DNA of 64,000 bases from Gemmatales bacterium. GTDB lineage: Bacteria; Planctomycetota; Planctomycetia; Gemmatales; HRBIN36. This document shows positions 9,294 through 47,233 of the stretch, piece after piece (the stretch's first letter is position 1; the number at the start of each line of letters is the position of its first letter). The notes beneath the pieces are model-generated. The model did not search any database, was not told the DNA's origin, and saw only the letters and a program-made list of their open reading frames with translations. The stretch is taken from positions 242,984 through 306,983 of the forward strand of contig JBEPZY010000002.1 in NCBI GenBank assembly GCA_041640595.1, read 5' to 3'. The translations under genes and the position numbers were made by a program.

Positions 9294-10403
9294 ATGCCGC
9301 GAAAGCAGGTGGCGCAATTTACCGTCGAATATCTGCAAATCCTTGACGAAAACGGTGTGGCCGATCGTGCCCTGGAACCGAGTCTGCCCCCAGCCACGTT
9401 GCTGCAAGTGCACCGGATGATGGTGCTGGCACGGCTGCTCGATCGCCGCATGACTATTCTGCAACAGCAGGGACGCCTGGGTACGTTTCCGAGTGTGCTG
9501 GGGCAGGAGGCTGCCAGTCTGGGTTGTGTTCTGGCTCTGCGTCCCGATGACTGGATTGTGCCCTGCTACCGCGAGAACTCGGCGTTGCTGTATCGCGGCC
9601 TGCCGATCAAAAACATCCTGCTGTTCTGGATGGGTGCGGAAGAGGGCTGCGTTTATTCTCCGGAGCTGCGGATTCTGCCGATTCCGATTCTGATCGGCAG
9701 TCAGACCATCCACGCGGTGGGTCTGGCCCTGGCGGCGAAAATCCACCAGCGCGATGAGGTGAGCATGGTTTTTTTCGGCGACGGAGCGACTTCCGAGGGA
9801 GATTTTCACGAGGCGTGCAACCTGGCCGGTGTGTATCAGGCCCCCGTAATTTTTGTTTGCATCAACAACCAGTACGCCATCTCCGTGCCCCGCAGTCAGC
9901 AATCACGCTCGGAAACGCTGGCACAGAAGGCAATCGCTTACGGATTTTCCGGCATCGTCGTGGACGGCAACGATGTGCTGGCCTGTTATGTGGCCGCACG
10001 CGAAGCCGTGGAACGAGCTCGTCGCGGTCAGGGGCCGACTCTCATCGAATGCCTCACCTATCGCCTCGGTCCGCACACTTCCGCCGATGATCCCCGCCGC
10101 TACCGCGAAGAAGCAGAACGTCAGGTCTGGGAAGCCCGCGATCCGATCAAGCGCTGGCAGGCGTATCTGGAACGGCAAGGGCTCTGGACGGCTGATCAGC
10201 AGGCGGAACTGGAGCGGGAACTGCAGGCGGAAATTGACCAGGCAGTTCGGTTGGCCGAAGCGGAACTGGCACAGCTCGACCCGCTGGACATGTTCGACTA
10301 CGTGTATGCGGAAACGCCGCCGGATCTGCTGGCTCAGAAGCGCGAAGCCGCCGAATATGTCCGACCCGATGCTTCCGTTTCGACGCCGGCGCGGAGGTCG
10401 TGA
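9294..10403 (+). CDS. pdhA: Pyruvate/2-oxoacid dehydrogenase E1 alpha subunit
   Basis: GQEA, ThDP motif GDGATSEGDFHE...NNQYAIS, YRLGPHTSADD; start reassigned to ATG 9294 after ggagg. Confidence 0.9.
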   Translation: MPRKQVAQFTVEYLQILDENGVADRALEPSLPPATLLQVHRMMVLARLLDRRMTILQQQGRLGTFPSVLGQEAASLGCVLALRPDDWIVPCYRENSALLYRGLPIKNILLFWMGAEEGCVYSPELRILPIPILIGSQTIHAVGLALAAKIHQRDEVSMVFFGDGATSEGDFHEACNLAGVYQAPVIFVCINNQYAISVPRSQQSRSETLAQKAIAYGFSGIVVDGNDVLACYVAAREAVERARRGQGPTLIECLTYRLGPHTSADDPRRYREEAERQVWEARDPIKRWQAYLERQGLWTADQQAELERELQAEIDQAVRLAEAELAQLDPLDMFDYVYAETPPDLLAQKREAAEYVRPDASVSTPARRS

Positions 10404-11384
10404 ATGGCCCTACGCAACCTGGTACAGGCACTCAATCTCGCCCTGCGGCAGGAGATGGAAAAGGATGACCGGATTGTTCTCCTGGGAGAAGATATCGGCC
10501 GGCAGGGCGGCGTTTTTCGCGTTACTGAGGGATTGCTGGATCGCTTCGGGCCGATGCGGGTGCTCGATACACCAGTTTCCGAAGCGGGGATCGTCGGCAC
10601 TTCCATCGGGCTGGCATTAGCCGGGTTACGTCCGGTCGCGGAGATTCAGTTCAGCGGCTTCATGTTCAACGCCCTGCACCAGCTTGGACTGTTAGCGGCA
10701 CGGTTTCGCAGCCGGTCACGGGGAACTTTCCAGGTGCCGATGGTGGTACGCAGTCCCTGGGGCGGTGGTGTGCGGGCGCTGGAATTGCACAACGAAAGCG
10801 AAGAAGCGGTTTACGCCCAGCTGCCCGGTTTGAAAGTGGTCATCCCTTCTCGTCCGCGGCGAGCCCGAGCCCTTCTGGTCGCCAGCATCCGCGATCCCGA
10901 TCCGGTGGTCTTTCTCGAACCGAAGCGGGTGTACCGCTCCATTCGGGAAGAGGTGCCGGACGAGGAAGAAATCTTCCCGATCGGCGAGGCCGAAATTGTT
11001 CGCAGCGGCCGCCATCTGACGCTGATTACCTACGGCAGCATGTTGCAGGACTGCTTGCAGGCCGCCGAGCAGGCCGAACGACTGCACCAGATCAGCGTGG
11101 AGGTGATTGATCTGCTCACGGTCGTGCCTATGGATACGGCAACGATTGTGCGATCGGTGCAAAAAACCGGTCGCTGCGTCGTTGTCCACGAGGCACCGCG
11201 TTCCTGCGGTATCGGTGCGGAAATTATCGCGCGGATCAACGAACAATGCCTGTTCCATTTGCAGGCACCGGTGGCACGGGTGACCGGTTACGATATTCCC
11301 TATCCGTTCTTTGCCCGCGAACAAAGCTATCTGCCCAACGTGGCACGGATTCTCGACGCCATTCGCCGGACGCTGGAGTCGTAA
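10404..11384 (+). CDS. pdhB: Pyruvate/2-oxoacid dehydrogenase E1 beta subunit
   Basis: GEDIG..GGVFRVTEGL, DTPVSEAGI, EIQF, DPDPVVFLEPK; abuts the pdhA stop. Confidence 0.9.
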   Translation: MALRNLVQALNLALRQEMEKDDRIVLLGEDIGRQGGVFRVTEGLLDRFGPMRVLDTPVSEAGIVGTSIGLALAGLRPVAEIQFSGFMFNALHQLGLLAARFRSRSRGTFQVPMVVRSPWGGGVRALELHNESEEAVYAQLPGLKVVIPSRPRRARALLVASIRDPDPVVFLEPKRVYRSIREEVPDEEEIFPIGEAEIVRSGRHLTLITYGSMLQDCLQAAEQAERLHQISVEVIDLLTVVPMDTATIVRSVQKTGRCVVVHEAPRSCGIGAEIIARINEQCLFHLQAPVARVTGYDIPYPFFAREQSYLPNVARILDAIRRTLES

Positions 11385-39321: not shown

Positions 39322-40977
39322 TTATTCCACGGACACCACCTCGATTTGCAGGTGGGACAGGAGCGGTTGGAAGACCAGGAGCGGGCGTGTCGGTTGCACA
39401 TCGTTCCAGCTGTGATGGGCGAGTTTGATGTGTGTGGCGGTGATATGCTCCTGGTTGAGCGTTGGGTCTAAACCGTACCATCGGCCGCGAATCCACACTT
39501 CCAGCCACATGTGCGGCACGAACGCCCGATGGTGCGGGTCGTACAAAAAACCCATCGCTAACCGCGACGGCACACCGACCGCACGACACATAGCCGCGGC
39601 GAGCACGGCATGTTCGGTACAATCGCCCGCCAGGGTGCGAGCTACCTCATCCGCTGAGGCAAACGCTTCCACATAGGTCTTGTCGCGGACGTTCTCGTAC
39701 ACCCAGCGTCGGATGCGCTGGGCTTTCTCCCACGGTTCGGTAGCACCAGCCACGGCACGGCGAGCCAGTTGCTGCACCAGCTTGTCCTCGCTATTGACGA
39801 CCGGATTACTCCGCAAATACTCCGCAGGCGGTTCGGTTCGGTCAGTGTCACCCTGGCCGGGCTCATTACCGCGGGACACTTCCAGTTCCAGCATTGCGGG
39901 CTGTCGCTGACGCAGACGTTGGCGGTCATCCTGCGGGAAAACTCCCTCGGCAAATTGCCCCGATTTCAGGGTCAGACGGTAGGTGATTTTCCGCGCTTGC
40001 AGAGGTTGTGCAATGGGCCGGGCGACGCGAATCATCTGCCTCAGGGCAATATCCACAGTCTCGACCGGGCCGGGGGCGAGTGCTTCCTCTTTGCCAGTGC
40101 GCAGGCATAGCATCTTGCCCAGTCCGGGCTGGTGGGTTTCCAGGCGAACCGGCTCCCCGGTTTCATCGAGCCAGATCAGGGCATCGGGCAATTCCACGCC
40201 GGGTATTTTTTCATAACGCGCCCGCAAGCGTAACCATTTCCGTCCCGCGGTAAAAGGCCCCGTGTCGTAATCCTCGGCGGTGACCTGGAGCTGAACGAAG
40301 CGATCCAGTTCCGGCACGAATTTGCAATATTGTCGCCTGGTGCCGGGCTCCCACTTCTGCTGGCTCAAAAACCGTTCTTCTGCGTACAAACCGAGGGCTT
40401 CGGCTTTCCAGGGAATGCGTACCTGGCGGGGTGGTTGTTGCCCGATCTGCACCTGCATGACCAGTTCCTCGCCGATCACCGTGCCGCGGCGAATGATGTG
40501 CTGGTCGCGGCCAATCTGCAGGTGCACGGTCACACTGGCCACCAGTCCCTGCGGCGTTTCGTAATTGGCCAGGGTGTTGACAAAGGTCACCGGTTGCCCA
40601 AACCGCCGCACTCGCAATTCCATCGTGCTCGTGGCCTGGATAAACGGCTGCCCACGTATGCTGACTTCCTGATACACATGGTGCAAATGGCCCGATTTCA
40701 CGCCTTCCAGATACAGCGCTTCCCAGACCTCTTTCAAGATTTTGCCAGGGCGAACCTCGCCGTTGGCGGGTGGATTCTGCGCCCAGCTGATGGCCAAACC
40801 TGCCAGGCTCATTCCCGCAAGCACAAGCGTTATGCCGATTGCCCACTGCTTGTGCCATCGCTTCCCCGCACTACTGGTTGCATTCGAGTGAAGCAGGCAC
40901 GGATGCGGAGTTGGCACGCCACCTGGCGAAATCATCGGCAACCCTGCGGCATGGCGAACGTGTTGACCTGGTGTCAT
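39322..40977 (-). CDS. Transglutaminase-like domain protein
   Basis: GDCTEHA...PHMWLEVW...GLDPT Cys-His-Asp triad; TM/signal near the N-terminus; RBS aaggag before ATG 40977. Confidence 0.88.
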   Translation of the reverse strand: MTPGQHVRHAAGLPMISPGGVPTPHPCLLHSNATSSAGKRWHKQWAIGITLVLAGMSLAGLAISWAQNPPANGEVRPGKILKEVWEALYLEGVKSGHLHHVYQEVSIRGQPFIQATSTMELRVRRFGQPVTFVNTLANYETPQGLVASVTVHLQIGRDQHIIRRGTVIGEELVMQVQIGQQPPRQVRIPWKAEALGLYAEERFLSQQKWEPGTRRQYCKFVPELDRFVQLQVTAEDYDTGPFTAGRKWLRLRARYEKIPGVELPDALIWLDETGEPVRLETHQPGLGKMLCLRTGKEEALAPGPVETVDIALRQMIRVARPIAQPLQARKITYRLTLKSGQFAEGVFPQDDRQRLRQRQPAMLELEVSRGNEPGQGDTDRTEPPAEYLRSNPVVNSEDKLVQQLARRAVAGATEPWEKAQRIRRWVYENVRDKTYVEAFASADEVARTLAGDCTEHAVLAAAMCRAVGVPSRLAMGFLYDPHHRAFVPHMWLEVWIRGRWYGLDPTLNQEHITATHIKLAHHSWNDVQPTRPLLVFQPLLSHLQIEVVSVE

Positions 40978-41343
40978 AGCGAGGACTCCTTCCAGAGTGC
41001 ACAAGGTGAGGCAAAACACCGTGCGTTGCTGGCGCGGCTCTGAAAGTTTTGCCCGCGACCTGATGCTCCGCTTACAATCATAGCCGATCGCCTGCATCCG
41101 CGGTATGGCGAGCATGTTCACCGCTGAACACGTCCAGCAGGCATCGCCGCTGTTTTGCGACTAATAAGTCGCGCAGGCATAGTCGGCAGGATCGTCGGCT
41201 CAGGTCAGGATCGGTGCTGGCGGAGCATTTTTCTTCAGTTCCGACATTCAGCCAGACCGGGGCCAGGGCGATACAATGATACAGACACCTGGATCTTCCT
41301 CCCGCCGCGGTTCTGTTGCCAACCCCCTGCCATCGGAAGCTCC

Positions 41344-41979: not shown

Positions 41980-42059
41980 TCCGCTGGTATCACGGCGTTG
42001 AAAAATAAGCAAGCGGAAGATTGTAGCGACGGCACGACTTTCCCCCACCCGCCCGCCCA

Positions 42060-42470
42060 GCGAACCGACACCCGCCGCTCTTGTTCGTCCGTTCGCTAGT
42101 CGCTGAACGAAGCGCGTTTCCCGCTGCACAACGTTCGTATCACGGAACCACGGCGGGCTGACGCCCGCCGCTCCTGTTCGTCCGTTCGCTAGTCGCTGAA
42201 CGAAGCGCGTTTCCCGCTGCACAACGTTCGTATCACCGAACCACGGCGGGCTGACGCCCGCCGCTCTTGGCTGGACGCACGCCTGCGCATTGCAAGTCGC
42301 GCATCTCGCACCGAACAAGCGTCGTGCACCAAGAGCGGCTGGCGTAAGCCAGCCGTGGCACCACATCCGCATGTGCGGCGCAAAACGTATTCAATCCGAA
42401 AAAGCCGGTGGCGTTGCAAGTGCGAATCCGAACCGCGGCGGGCTGACGCCCGCCGCTCTTGGTTGTGTGT
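42060..42470. repeat. REP-like palindrome cluster 5
   Basis: Inverted GGCGGG-type units with a near-exact tandem duplication of about 94 bp. Confidence 0.9.
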
Positions 42471-42656
42471 GCGGTCGTCGTAGAGCAGAGTTCGATTCTC
42501 GCAGGACAGTGAGCGAATTACTTGTCGTGATTTGGCGCCGCTCCGTTCCTTCGGGAACAGTCGTCTCTTGGGCGAACGAGGGCGACGCATCCTTGACCGC
42601 AATCCACCAGTCGCCCTTTAATGACCGGCGTAGTCGCGGTGACCGAACCGTACGCC

Positions 42657-42823
42657 GTGCAACTTTCCCTGGCTGACGACGAAAGCTTTGGTAAATACGG
42701 CAAGCGCGATATTACCGACTCTGGTGCAACTTTCGCTGGCCGACGACGAAAACGCGAACATTGGTTCTGGTGAGATAAAAACGACACCATCTGGTGCGAA
42801 TTTCGCCCGCCGACGACGGAAGC
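42657..42823. repeat. Three 30-bp direct repeats upstream of the ATP-grasp gene
   Basis: gtgcaactttcSctggcYgacgacgaaa at 42657, 42724 and 42794 (third copy more diverged), unique spacers. Confidence 0.75.
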
Positions 42824-42830
42824 CCGAACC

Positions 42831-43736
42831 ATGGCCATCCTCATTTTGGGCAGTTATGACGATGAGCATGCCTGCCATGTTTACCAGTACCTGAAAGACC
42901 GTTGCCGGCAGGACGTGGAGCTGTTCGACAGTCGCTGGTTCCCAACGCACACGCAGATTAGTTTTGAACCGCAAGGCTGCCAGGGATGGTTACGCTTGCC
43001 TACGGGCCGTCGGTTGCGGTGGGAGGAAATTACTGCGGTTTACTGGCGCTGTTACTACGGCGTGGCCGTTCCATCTCTTCCCGATCCGGAGCAGCGACTG
43101 ATTGCCGAATCGGATAGCCAGGGGCTGATCGAGACACTGTTTCTGGAGCTGCCCGCTCGCTGGGTCAATGGCTGGCACGCTCAGCAACTGCATCGCACCA
43201 AACCGGTGCAATTGCAGCGTGTGGCGCGGCTGGGGTTAGCCATCCCCGCGACCGTCGTCACCAACGATGCCGAAACGGTAAAGCAATTCGTGGCCGAGCA
43301 TGGGCGGTGTATCTTCAAGCCCGTGCAGGGCGGTGCGCATGCCCGTTACGTCGAAAGCCGACACCTCACCGATGAGCATCTGTCGTTGCTCCGTGTTGCC
43401 CCGGTTACCATCCAGGAGGCTGTAGAAGGCACGAACATTCGCGTTTTTGTCGCCGGTCAGGAGGTGTATGCGTGCGAAATTCGCACGCCCTGTCTCGACT
43501 ACCGCGACGATCCCCAGCCACGCATTCTCGTTCATACACTGCCAGCGGAGGTGGTCGAGCAGTGCCGGACAGCGGCCAGGGAACTCGATTTGCTCTGGAC
43601 GGGGATGGACTTTCGCCTGACTGCGGACGGACGCTATGTGTTTTTAGAAGCGAATCCCAGCCCGATGTTTTTGGGTTTCGAAAAGGCCACGGGTCTGCCC
43701 CTGACCGAGGCCCTGGTGAAGCTGCTGACAGGATAA
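42831..43736 (+). CDS. ATP-grasp peptide ligase, PsnB/graspetide-synthetase-like
   Basis: D.HA N-terminus, AVYWR, WVN, KPVQL..V..LGL.IPAT..TND, IFKPVQGGA, IQE, IRVFV, LDYR, MDFR, FLEANPSPMF. Confidence 0.88.
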   Translation: MAILILGSYDDEHACHVYQYLKDRCRQDVELFDSRWFPTHTQISFEPQGCQGWLRLPTGRRLRWEEITAVYWRCYYGVAVPSLPDPEQRLIAESDSQGLIETLFLELPARWVNGWHAQQLHRTKPVQLQRVARLGLAIPATVVTNDAETVKQFVAEHGRCIFKPVQGGAHARYVESRHLTDEHLSLLRVAPVTIQEAVEGTNIRVFVAGQEVYACEIRTPCLDYRDDPQPRILVHTLPAEVVEQCRTAARELDLLWTGMDFRLTADGRYVFLEANPSPMFLGFEKATGLPLTEALVKLLTG

Positions 43737-43830
43737 CATGTCGGTCGGACTTGCTGACGGGGCAAGGGCCAATTTTCGGCGAGCAGCGAGGTGGTACCGG
43801 TTTTCAGGAGAAGCGCGTTCCGGGCCGGTG

Positions 43831-44325
43831 TCACCGGACGCGTTCGCCTGCTTCAAACCATGCCATGGTGGGACGCTTGGGTGGGTTGCCTTCCTCGCCC
43901 AGTGCAAAGGTAGTTATCGGGCCTCTGGGTGGCTTTACGCCTTCTTCGTTCCGGACGTTGGTGGTCGGCGGGACGCGAGGCGGGTTGCCCTCCTCACCTA
44001 ACGCCAGTGTGGTTACCTGTCCTGGCGGTAATACGATCCGGGGCGGATTGCCTTCTTCTCCGAGCGCTTGCGTGGTAAATTGTCCCGGCGGCAGGTTTGG
44101 CCGCTGCGGATTTGCCGGCGGACGAGCAGTTCGCTCGGAAGCGATCGCACTGGCCATCGGCAGAATCAGCGTGCTGGCAACCGCAGCACACAGGCGGTCC
44201 AACCATTCCCGCCGAGAGAGCCGGTGCGAAGAATCGGTTGGCTCGTTCCTGGTCTGGGGCACAGGAGCGCCTACTGCTTCCGATTCGCACCCAGCGAGGT
44301 TCAGTCCGTCAAAGGGATGACGCAT
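43831..44325 (-). CDS. Multicore graspetide precursor (TTxxxxEE repeats) with a Tat-like signal
   Basis: RBS ggaggt; SRREWL plus hydrophobic stretch plus AxA; cores TTQALGEE, TTLALGEE, TTNVRNEE, TTFALGEE, PTMAWFEA; adjacent to the ATP-grasp ligase. Confidence 0.85.
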   Translation of the reverse strand: MRHPFDGLNLAGCESEAVGAPVPQTRNEPTDSSHRLSRREWLDRLCAAVASTLILPMASAIASERTARPPANPQRPNLPPGQFTTQALGEEGNPPRIVLPPGQVTTLALGEEGNPPRVPPTTNVRNEEGVKPPRGPITTFALGEEGNPPKRPTMAWFEAGERVR

Positions 44326-44872
44326 GGCACACCTCCGCGCTCGGCTTCAAATGTCCGAATTTATCCCGTCCCAGTATCGTCCTTATCAGCCAGTCCGCGA
44401 CAACAATTCTCGCCAGAGTTTGCCCACATCACCCCGACCGCCGCGTTGTCCCCATTTCTAAAGACGAATTTGCCCCGGAAAAAGTTTCAGCTTCAGTGCA
44501 TCCATCGCACCTGACAATGCCATCGGCTTCGGCACCATTCAAGGATTTAGTCCTTGGTTTACTCCTTAGTGCTAACGCAGTGGCACAGGAGCCTTGCGCG
44601 GCAAGTAGAGCCAAATAACGCTGTCCACCGCAAGCGCGAACGCTATGGGAGCTGCCCACCGCCAGAGCAACCACCTCGGCGAGCCTTGCGAGTACCTGCG
44701 GTTGTGCTTGACAACTGCGGGGAAGTTAACTATGGGCGGTCGGCCTTGTACGGGGCCGGTAAGCGGTGGAGGGGCAGCGCGAAAGGACACCAGCCCAATA
44801 CCAGGCCAGGTCGCGGATTCGCTTACCTGGTACAACGCCCAAGCGCCAGCACGGGGGGAGAAACTAATCCGT

Positions 44873-47233
44873 ATGACGCACTTGTGCCGTTCTTATTGGC
44901 TCTGGTCGGTGGCGGGGCTGTGTGGCCTGGCGACCTGGTTATGCCTGGCACAGTCGCCGGAGTTGATCGTCGCCGAGGTGCGTATCGAAGGCGCACGCCG
45001 TCAGCCCGAACAAGCCATCCTCAATATGCTGAAAACCCGTCCAGGCCGCGTTTATAACCCGCTGGAAATTCAGGAAGATGTCCGCAAACTGATGGAAACC
45101 AACTGGTTCGCCGATGTTCGCCCGGCCGAAGCACGCACTCCCCAGGGAGTCGTGGTCATCTTCCGTGTCGTCGAACGCCCGACCATCAAGGAAATCATTT
45201 ACGACGGCGCCAAGCATCTCAGCCGGAAAGAGCTGGAAGAAATTACCGGATTGCGACCCGGCGGGCCGATGGACCCGGCTCTGAACTGGCGGGCCCGCGA
45301 GGCCATCGAACGCAAATACAAAGAAAAAGGTCGGTTGCTGGCGCGCGTGGAACTTGTCGAAGGAACCAAGTCCGACGACCTCCGCGTGGTCTTCCGCATT
45401 ACCGAAGGGCCGGTCATTCGTATCCGCAGCCTCAGCTTTGAAGGCAACAACTTCGTCAGCGCTGCCCGGCTGAAAACGCAGATTGATTCGCGGGCCACCT
45501 TGCTGGGATTTTTCGGCGAATACGATCCGGAACGCCTGGATAACGACGTGTTGAAGTTGCTGAAATACTACCACACCTTCGGCTTTTTCGAGGCCCGCAT
45601 CGGTCGCAAGGTTTTCTGGCAGCCCGGCAGTGATCGCGTGGATGTCGTTTTCGTGATTGAAGAAGGGCCGCGATCCTATATCGCCGGCACCGAGGTTGCC
45701 GGGAATCGCATCCTCGACCAGAGCATGCTCCTCGCCCATGACAAAACCGAAAAAGGCAAGCCCTACAACGCCAATATCGTCCAGGCCAGCGCTCGAGAAA
45801 TGCGTGATGAATACTGGAAACGCGGCTATGTCTTCGCGGATGTCCAGCCGATCCTCAAATACAGCAGCGAGCCGGGAGTTACGACTGTTGTTTACCAGGT
45901 CAATGAAGGCCCATTGCCGCAGACCGGCGAGCCATATCGAGTCGGCGAAATCCGCATCGTCGGTAACACGGTCACCCAGGATCGCGTCATCCGGCGGGAA
46001 CTTGTCGGCCTGGAACCGGGCCAGGTGTTTGACCGAACGGCTATCGCTCTCAGCGAACGCAATCTCTCGCGACTGCGCATCTTCAGGGAAGACCCGATTC
46101 AGGGAATTCGCCCCACCATCACCATCCTCAACGAAACCGATCCCTCGCCGTATAAGGATCTGCTGGTGGAAGTGCAGGAGGATCGCACCGGTTCGCTGTT
46201 AGTAGGAGCGGCGTTCAGCACTGATTACGGTGCCAACCTGAGCATTATCCTCAACGAGCGAAACTTCGACATTTTTGGCTTTCCGCGTTTGACAAGCTGG
46301 GATGATTTCTGGACGGATTTGACCAGCGGTCGCGCCTTCCGCGGGGCTGGCCAGGAATTGAGAATCGAGGCCATTCCAGGTACCGAAATCAGCCGCTACA
46401 CCATTACCTGGCGTGAACCCCGGTTATTCGATAGCCCCTACAGTTTAGGCGTGGGTGGCTATTACTACACGCGGATTTTCGATGAATACACGGAACAGCG
46501 TACTGGTGGGAGGATCACGCTGGGCCGACGGTTGACCCCGGAGTGGAGCTTCAACGTCGGTTTTCGCATCGAGGATGTGAAAGTGCGGAGTATTCCACCG
46601 ACCGCGCCGCCGGATTTCTTCGAGGTGGCCGGGCATAATTTCGTTTTAGCCCCGCGTATCGCTCTGGTGCGGGACACGCGCGATTCGATCATCCGCGCCA
46701 CCACGGGCAATTTCCTGGAAATCGCTTACGAGCAGGGATTGGGCGATTTCACCTATCCGATTGTGACCATCGAGGATAGCCAGTACTGGACGATTTACGA
46801 ACGGCCCGACGGTTCCGGTCGGCACGTGCTGGTGTTGCGGGGGATTGTCGGTTGGGCCGGCGACGACACGCCGCTTTTCGATCGTTTCTACGCTGGCGGT
46901 TTCCGCACGCTGCGTGGTTTCCGATTCCGGGGCGTCGGACCGCGAGTTAACGGTTTCAACGTTGGCGGCACGTTTGAAGCGCTCGGCAGCCTCGAATACC
47001 AGGTTCCCTTGCTGGCCAATGATATGATTTACGCCATCGCCTTTACCGATTTCGGTACCGTGGACAGCGATGTAACGCTGGAAAATTTCCGCGTCTCCGC
47101 CGGTTTCGGTCTGCGGATCAATGTGCCGATGTTAGGCCCGGCCCCGATCGCACTCGATTGGGGCTTCCCGATCGTCAAGGAAGATGGCGATCGCCGGCGC
47201 ACCTTCTTCTTCGGCATCGCTTTCTCGCGGTGA
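44873..47233 (+). CDS. bamA: Outer membrane protein assembly factor (BamA/Omp85 family)
   Basis: POTRA-like repeats (GNTVTQDRVIRREL), RFYAGG..TLRGF, FTDFG, SAGFGLR, terminal aromatic beta-strand. Confidence 0.88.
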   Translation: MTHLCRSYWLWSVAGLCGLATWLCLAQSPELIVAEVRIEGARRQPEQAILNMLKTRPGRVYNPLEIQEDVRKLMETNWFADVRPAEARTPQGVVVIFRVVERPTIKEIIYDGAKHLSRKELEEITGLRPGGPMDPALNWRAREAIERKYKEKGRLLARVELVEGTKSDDLRVVFRITEGPVIRIRSLSFEGNNFVSAARLKTQIDSRATLLGFFGEYDPERLDNDVLKLLKYYHTFGFFEARIGRKVFWQPGSDRVDVVFVIEEGPRSYIAGTEVAGNRILDQSMLLAHDKTEKGKPYNANIVQASAREMRDEYWKRGYVFADVQPILKYSSEPGVTTVVYQVNEGPLPQTGEPYRVGEIRIVGNTVTQDRVIRRELVGLEPGQVFDRTAIALSERNLSRLRIFREDPIQGIRPTITILNETDPSPYKDLLVEVQEDRTGSLLVGAAFSTDYGANLSIILNERNFDIFGFPRLTSWDDFWTDLTSGRAFRGAGQELRIEAIPGTEISRYTITWREPRLFDSPYSLGVGGYYYTRIFDEYTEQRTGGRITLGRRLTPEWSFNVGFRIEDVKVRSIPPTAPPDFFEVAGHNFVLAPRIALVRDTRDSIIRATTGNFLEIAYEQGLGDFTYPIVTIEDSQYWTIYERPDGSGRHVLVLRGIVGWAGDDTPLFDRFYAGGFRTLRGFRFRGVGPRVNGFNVGGTFEALGSLEYQVPLLANDMIYAIAFTDFGTVDSDVTLENFRVSAGFGLRINVPMLGPAPIALDWGFPIVKEDGDRRRTFFFGIAFSR

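Follow-up and report, generated by a model that had tools for sequence, protein, structure and literature searches.

A plesiocin-type graspetide locus of a Gemmatales bacterium and a predicted twin-arginine signal in its precursor

The stretch of DNA analysed here (the window) comprises 64,000 nucleotides of the Gemmatales bacterium assembly GCA_041640595.1 (contig JBEPZY010000002.1, positions 242,984 to 306,983 of the forward strand). It contains a pair of genes that are predicted to produce a graspetide, i.e. an omega-ester-linked member of the ribosomally synthesised peptides that undergo post-translational modification (RiPPs). One gene encodes an ATP-grasp ligase similar to PsnB, the other a multicore precursor in which a conserved leader motif is followed by a putative signal for the twin-arginine translocation (Tat) pathway, the general route by which proteins are exported in the folded state. 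Cyclisation of the precursor and its export by Tat, taken together, are considered likely. The ester chemistry and the family are known; no instance of a Tat signal joined to a graspetide leader motif came up in the literature searched.

According to the proposed mechanism, the ligase would dock on the N-terminal HPF motif of the precursor in the cytoplasm and staple every TTxxxxEE repeat into a hairpin by means of two Thr-Glu ester rings. Going by the chemistry of PsnB, ATP would activate the Glu carboxylate, and the inner ring (T2-E7) would be formed first, the outer ring (T1-E8) second. The stapled chain would then be moved across the inner membrane by the Tat translocase and cut at an AxA site, after residue 60 or 62, by signal peptidase I, removing leader and signal together. 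Such joint removal after export would explain the missing protease and transporter genes. By analogy to PsnB, ring formation by the ligase in the cores is very probable, and good confidence is placed both in the HPF motif as docking site and, judging from the signal and the host genes, in Tat export with cleavage.

The ligase and the core repeats

The ligase gene (42831..43736, + strand) encodes a PsnB-like graspetide synthetase of 301 amino acids. The precursor gene (43831..44325, - strand) encodes 164 amino acids, which comprise the HPF motif, the Tat-type signal, a Pro-rich spacer and 4+1 cores. The two genes are convergent, with 94 bp separating their stop codons. A first-pass annotation had reported both open reading frames (ORFs) with these coordinates and this gap, together with the ligase motifs KPVxGGA (here KPVQGGA, residues 163-169), D(Y/F)R (DYR, 223-225) and LEANPSP and the TTxxxxEE repeats, all of which were found as described. 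Its proposal of a planctomycete graspetide system was upheld, for a plesiocin-type (Group 2) pair, by the best PDB match of the ligase, the retention of core-binding residues and the co-occurrence of the two genes.

Four TTxxxxEEG motifs and a fifth variant lie in Pro-rich linkers of the precursor (all on the - strand): core 1, TTQALGEE (44053..44076); core 2, TTLALGEE (43990..44013); the divergent core 3, TTNVRNEE (43942..43965); core 4, TTFALGEE (43891..43914); and the terminal variant PTMAWFEAG (43846..43872). The variant appears conserved rather than decayed, because a TxAWFExG tail also ends several cyanobacterial precursors. It could hold one ring at most, since the inner Thr-Glu pair alone is present. 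Eight water losses are predicted from the four cores and at most one from the variant, in agreement with the eight to nine projected at first. When the 4.45-Mb genome was translated in all six frames, T[TS]xxxxEE matched 58 times, and the precursor was the sole stop-to-stop frame with at least two of them. The minus-strand ORF, whose conservation had been named as a point to be checked, has 68 homologues, the closest at 82-98% identity.

The best PDB match of the ligase was PsnB (7DRM, E 2e-37), followed by enzymes of the MdnB/C (microviridin) type (5e-17) and RimK (2e-5). In PsnB, R72 and R213 bind the core and the DFR loop is essential (bioRxiv 10.1101/2021.03.09.434688). In an alignment, these correspond to R73, R204 and D223-Y224-R225 of the window ligase, which also carries K163; the mapping uses a 20-residue numbering offset inferred from that alignment. 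The residues matching PsnB R72, K172, R213, D233 and R235 were present in all 59 ligases of the window's clade, and the core-binding arginines and the aspartate were also kept in 19/19 cyanobacterial and 6/6 LFIE-type ligases. The middle residue of the D(F/Y)R loop is Phe in 44 and Tyr in 15 of the 59 clade ligases, and the position of PsnB pocket residue L196 is Leu in every one of them.

Like the window, the protease inhibitor plesiocin (PsnA2/PsnB, Group 2a; bioRxiv 10.1101/2021.03.09.434688) combines four TTxxxxEE cores with a single ATP-grasp enzyme; its leader is of the LFIEDL type, whereas the window precursor starts with MRHPFDG and a Tat-type signal. The window also lacks the other marks of Group 2a: the Arg101 specific to that group aligns with Ser94 of the window ligase, in a column that is mostly Asn or Tyr, and LFIE leaders go with ligases of another clade. 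Two trees placed the window ligase apart from these LFIE-leader ligases and outside the RimK-like group with a support of 100, so that the grouping with RimK or LysX that had been raised as a possible objection was looked for and not seen. The place of PsnB in the trees was taken by a ligase of the LFIE type, which matches PsnB at 2e-51. The nearest named ligases belong to Gemmataceae and Gemmatales.

Co-occurrence of the pair in other Planctomycetota, likewise suggested as a check, was assessed in 401 genomes of the phylum with a ligase threshold of E 1e-30 or better. The ligase was found in nine genomes and the core pattern in ten, including all nine; the tenth carries a PsnB-like ligase on another contig, and the reversed core pattern, used as a control, gave four single matches. 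Six of the nine ligase genomes are of the LFIE type and only three of the window's kind. Among 61 near genomes, ligase and cores occurred together in the same four, and each of five ligases without a precursor in the examined flanks has one elsewhere in its genome.

An alternative reading holds that the precursor is an unmodified Tat-exported repeat protein and that the ligase acts on another substrate or is a housekeeping enzyme of the RimK/LysX type. It would account for the fact that no NCBIfam graspetide model reached its cut-off on the ligase (best TIGR04187, 155 bits versus 350) and that the two genes do not share an operon. The RimK model TIGR00768, however, scored only 41 bits against a cut-off of 143, the host carries a separate RimK-like gene, and the tree position, the strict co-occurrence of ligase and cores and the invariance of the residues that bind the substrate in PsnB all speak against this reading, which we regard as highly implausible.

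A predicted Tat-type signal behind the leader motif

The MRHPFDG motif (residues 1-7; 44305..44325, - strand) is the predicted ligase-binding element of the leader. PsnB has a hydrophobic pocket for the leader Phe (bioRxiv 10.1101/2021.03.09.434688), and the docking role of MRHPFDG is proposed because of Phe15 of PsnA2 and the leader motif Phhx(1,2)h. A complex prediction for the ligase and precursor residues 1-62 scored 0.07 against a mark of 0.32 and was not used either way. The HPF motif is common to the cyanobacterial members of cluster 434, a published family described below.

Tat substrates are defined by an S/T-R-R-x-hydrophobic motif, a hydrophobic stretch and an AxA cleavage site. The window precursor shows SRREWL at residues 37-42, the stretch LCAAVASTLILPM at 45-57 and ASA/AIA at 58-62 (together 44140..44217, - strand). 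In an alignment of 52 precursors, with rows chosen for HPF and the cyanobacterial type left out, H3, P4, F5, R38 and R39 were the sole invariant columns. The signal follows the consensus S/T-R-R-x-h-L in the non-cyanobacterial HPF precursors, and the hydrophobic stretch closes with AxA-Q/A in most homologues. The spacing between HPF and RR is variable (RR at residue 16 to 61), which fits two separate modules.

A rule that required RR, two hydrophobic residues and a 12-residue hydrophobic window was passed by 50/50 non-cyanobacterial but by 0/16 cyanobacterial HPF precursors, against a background of 2.5% of shuffled N-termini and 210/1990 host ORFs. Three duplicate loci had been dropped before this count, as had 11 rows in which no HPF start was in frame (six of them truncated or frameshifted, five of the LFIE type or, within LFIE loci, cut by contig edges) and 14 loci scored as precursor-less by a strict filter. 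When the latter were re-examined, HPF and RR were found in L046, L053 and L083 and across a frameshift in L031, L057 and L107, HPF and GG in L089, L092 and L103, unlinked HPF and RR precursors for L049, L050, L061 and L091 and an unlinked GG precursor for L094; the short contigs L058 and L071 were left unassigned. GG at residues 29-42 was present in 14/16 cyanobacterial and 15/50 Tat-type precursors and absent from the window precursor, and the acidic fraction of the leader was 0.28 in the cyanobacterial versus 0.12 in the Tat-type group. The ligases that go with signal-bearing precursors form one clade, which takes in several Pseudomonadota records and is sister to the cyanobacterial ligases (Shimodaira-Hasegawa-like approximate likelihood ratio test, 97 with 19 chosen rows and 91 with 61 rows).

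A signal profile built from the RR-to-AxA segments only was run over 3287 host frames. It ranked host proteins with RR-x-FL N-termini first (the RREWL variant was seen in 3 of the top 30), and 95% of its top 40 matches lay inside the first 120 residues of the frame. Weak matches to TIGR01409 or TIGR02811 were obtained for 16/47 non-cyanobacterial and 0/14 other precursors. The host encodes a Tat translocase (TatC, E 3e-56; TatA/B/E, E 1.7e-13), and no C39 peptidase was found in its genome, which is 95.5% complete. The first-pass annotation had noted the absence of a nearby protease and transporter but overlooked its likely cause, the twin-arginine signal behind the HPF motif.

Several observations weigh against this sequence of docking, export and cleavage. 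The result of 50/50 is partly built in, because the rule was written after the sequences had been inspected, and the Tat label largely tracks taxonomy, so that the 66 precursors are not independent events but one origin seen repeatedly. The Tat consensus prefers Phe at a position where the window signal has Trp, and an Asp follows two residues later. The window precursor matched neither TIGR01409, whose cut-off was passed by 1/47 precursors, nor TIGR02811 or PF10518, and it matched only the N-terminus of the hydrogenase-2 small subunit model (E 0.076). Its mature chain is probably mostly unstructured. In one locus, L081, a Tat-clade ligase is accompanied by a short HPF precursor that lacks RR, and the leader-pocket residues R192 and F203 of PsnB differ in the window's clade (His183 and Ile194 in the window ligase). 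As for the host genes, the match to signal peptidase I was partial and under the cut-off, and an unlinked C39 match was found in 2/5 other Tat-type genomes. A C39-type ATP-binding cassette (ABC) transporter was detected within 8 kb of the ligase in only two loci, both cyanobacterial, of 81 scanned for motifs, so that the local absence of a transporter is not discriminating. According to a 2022 survey, such loci do not usually include a gene for the peptidase (PMC8939145).

Some of these points favour the reading of the pair as a Group 2 graspetide system in which the RR-hydrophobic segment is an uncleaved membrane anchor or part of the enzyme-binding leader, so that the product would remain anchored or inside the cytoplasm, or would be freed by an unlinked protease. 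Rieske proteins provide a precedent, in that a Tat-type segment serves as their uncleaved membrane anchor. Consistent with this alternative, the curated Tat models do not match the window signal, some homologues weakly match Rieske-type Tat anchors, about one quarter of the precursors have no strict AxA in the segment examined, and C39 matches occur in two of the five related genomes. It is countered by the two AxA sites of the window precursor and the AxA-Q/A ending of most homologues, and by the lack of a C39 peptidase in the host. The enzyme-binding version is further opposed by the cyanobacterial sister ligases, which pair with HPF precursors devoid of the segment, so that the segment is probably not needed for enzyme binding. 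Overall, this alternative appears distinctly unlikely, and cyclisation followed by Tat export and cleavage is preferred.

The family itself has been catalogued before (PMC8939145) as cluster 434 (Lee Group 2, 'Branch_Plesiocin'), including Sinac_0865 of the planctomycete Singulisphaera, so that a planctomycete plesiocin-type locus is not new and the family already appears in published mining tables. The ligase of the Sinac_0865 locus is 58% identical to that of the window and falls into the same tree clade. Cluster 434 resembles the window in its HPF(D) leader, TTxAxGEEG repeats and TxAWFExG tail; its consensus is a cyanobacterial acidic leader with a double-glycine site, which the window precursor lacks, and the Singulisphaera row is scored 'GG' (PMC8939145). 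In the available part of that paper, 'twin-arginine' or 'Tat' had no match in the main text, and the passages in the supplement concern other genes. The same survey lists the leader-cleaving enzyme of graspetides as unknown.

In Rheinheimera, RcpA/RcpB/RcpC (Group 2; PMC11626197) likewise combine TTxxxxEE-type cores with one ligase and give an elastase-inhibiting product, but there the system's own ABC transporter cleaves the leader at GG through its C39 domain, whereas the window has no such leader and the genome no C39 peptidase. As proposed for the window, the large, protein-like precursors of bufferins and DAG-RiPPs (bioRxiv 10.1101/2024.03.18.585515; PMC13056109) are modified in the cytoplasm and then exported and trimmed by general machinery. 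These systems rely on MNIO enzymes and on Sec-type or lipoprotein signals, and modification of bufferins does not require the signal. Unlike them, the window precursor has a conserved leader motif ahead of a Tat-type signal, and its product would be macrocyclic before export; the bufferin authors consider that macrocyclic peptides would be poor Sec substrates. A search for a natural Tat-exported RiPP by titles and the starts of abstracts, which left some central graspetide papers uncovered, returned none. Word searches gave no match for signal peptidase or Tat in a 2023 review of RiPP leader proteases and no relevant match in PMC12452194, PMC13381572 and PMC8183687.

The predicted product and related precursors

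The last and least certain step of the mechanism concerns the function of the product. An exported chain of ~102 residues would inhibit serine proteases in the periplasm or outside the cell, and such a multi-headed inhibitor is slightly favoured. Characterised graspetides are protease inhibitors (PMC8939145), including a Group 2 member (PMC11626197). Position 3 of the cores comprises L, Q, R, K, Y, F and M within single precursors, with a mean of 3.3 kinds each. If this position is P1, the variety would confer broader specificity.

Alternatively, the precursor may be cyclised and exported as proposed, with the rings serving to stiffen, protect or tag the exported protein rather than as inhibitor loops. 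This reading departs from the preferred one in the last step only and overlaps with it. The attachment of cores to unrelated domains (helical, HEAT-like, DUF1080) points in this direction, as do an acidic residue at position 3 in 12/255 cores and the weak propeptide likeness of the commonest fused domain (Z at most 6.9). The inhibitory activity of the characterised graspetides argues against it, and the variety at position 3 is what would be expected of a multi-specific inhibitor, again provided that it represents P1. We judge it unlikely, though with some weight left to it, and protease inhibition remains slightly favoured.

At least 19/50 precursors are fused to domains of 170-220 residues; the counting rule misses some, e.g. 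L075, where the precursor (L075:29-1165) includes a domain of the DUF1080 family (3-keto-disaccharide hydrolase-like; E 3.6e-47). In L056 (7286-7795) and 13 related loci, one domain of ~170 residues, which is absent from the window, lies between signal and cores. Its model shows two ferredoxin-like halves in tandem (predicted local distance difference test score 92.7). Seven relatives matched PF05922 (Inhibitor I9) under the cut-off, with a best E of 0.0015, and subtilase propeptides were frequent among the top structural matches (e.g. EpiP, Z 6.7, root-mean-square deviation 2.7, 63 residues aligned). Z was at most 6.9 for any match, none reaching 8, and Foldseek listed RRM-like domains. The modelled domain therefore gives no more than a hint of a subtilase propeptide or inhibitor I9 fold. 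A profile search of the domain against PDB sequences returned spurious repeats only and was discarded. The ESM Atlas yielded no match at 0.9 or more.

TTxAxGEE cores were also seen behind Nif11-like leaders (identified by eye) and LFIEEL leaders (P0044, P0056, P0019), so that leaders appear to be freely swapped on this core. In a second lineage (L203, L205-L207), cores of a similar kind are paired with a ligase that is divergent (at most 29% identity) and has PsnB as its best PDB match (7e-10). Where its N-termini are present (L203, L206), they carry an RR signal, in L203 without HPF. The L203 precursor (9450-11201, G705) ends in PW..FRRW and lies directly upstream of the divergent PsnB-like ligase. 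The position of this lineage in the tree is uncertain; it possibly represents an independent coupling of cores to Tat. In L204 (5470-7744, G547), the product of the gene directly upstream of another ATP-grasp ligase resembles, by eye, a metalloprotease of the astacin type and carries KEVxKDP repeats at its C-terminus; it is possibly a protease-fused graspetide precursor of a different group.

A wider proposal is put forward tentatively, with confidence somewhat short of even: in Planctomycetota and some Pseudomonadota, the leader may be nested before the Tat signal so that the cyclase binds the HPF motif, holds the chain until it is stapled, similar to a Tat proofreading chaperone, and then passes the macrocyclic product, be it a peptide or a full-size protein, to Tat, an arrangement that may have arisen twice (in the HPF clade and in the L203 lineage). 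For leader removal and export of graspetides, the HPF/Tat clade would point to a possible answer in general machinery. If this holds, leader and export signal would share one N-terminus and the cargo would be cyclised before export, extending the logic of signal-peptide RiPPs to macrocycles unfit for Sec. The clade would then offer a natural Tat-exported RiPP and a portable means of ester-stapling exported proteins, and a two-gene tool for stapled peptides or proteins in the periplasm. In planctomycetes, it would also provide candidate protease inhibitors of a multi-headed kind, Singulisphaera acidiphila DSM 18658 (L035) being a cultured member of this family.

Gene order and surroundings of the locus

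The tail-to-tail arrangement, presented at first as a point of interest, turned out to be incidental. The 50 non-cyanobacterial HPF precursors comprise 39 head-to-head, 8 tandem and 3 tail-to-tail cases, after correction of the script score (36 head-to-head, 8 tandem, 5 tail-to-tail and 1 undetermined) by the coordinates of L034, L039 and L081, which were reassigned to head-to-head. The three tail-to-tail loci of the Tat type make up one small subclade, which consists of the window and the two loci whose ligases are closest to its own; the arrangement also occurs in 3/16 cyanobacterial precursors (L093 assigned by hand). In the Alcaligenaceae record L081 (6186-7937), one ligase lies beside two precursors, a short HPF one that has a GG-like site and a long one of the Tat type.

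The pair is flanked by genes for a transglutaminase-like protein (39322-41121, - strand) and BamA (44645-47233, + strand). Both were considered as members of the system and rejected, since the pair is accompanied by neither of them across the loci examined. In the stretches examined, the upstream genes are present without the pair in two same-genus genomes, and ligase and core pattern were not found in three same-genus genomes (78-93% complete). No conserved third gene was identified among the clustered neighbour frames of 80 loci: three large clusters were taken as shadow frames of the two genes (one representative of the large clusters was scanned and had no Pfam match), and the remaining clusters were small and lineage-specific. 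Matches to a 'C39' motif beside Phycisphaerae ligases proved to be glutamine amidotransferases and were dismissed. In L065, L069, L073 and L084, the next gene after the ligase encodes a class II glutamine amidotransferase, and the precursors have a long helical region; a tailoring step is possible.

At the locus, a sigma-70 promoter scan gave no site, the number of terminator-like structures was not clearly higher than in shuffled sequences (6 versus 2.7 +/- 2.0), and analysis of composition revealed no island signature. Both genes are covered by contigs of four metatranscriptome runs. These were not accepted as evidence of transcription, because the contigs are strandless, the runs were found by use of this stretch and the coverage of one of them, X1, extends over all of the flanking and intergenic DNA. 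The contigs of these RNA libraries include strain variants with 12-base deletions in the repeat region that keep the reading frame. Three direct repeats of ~45 nucleotides, spaced by 67 and 70 nucleotides (window 42653-42834), end at the start codon of the ligase gene; they may have a regulatory role or be left over from a repeat element. A GC-rich palindrome resembling repetitive extragenic palindromic (REP) sequences (window 42050-42465 and genome-wide) has 11 copies on the + strand of the window and several hundred in the genome (583 matches when both strands are counted, some perhaps twice), and gives rise to many spurious ORFs.

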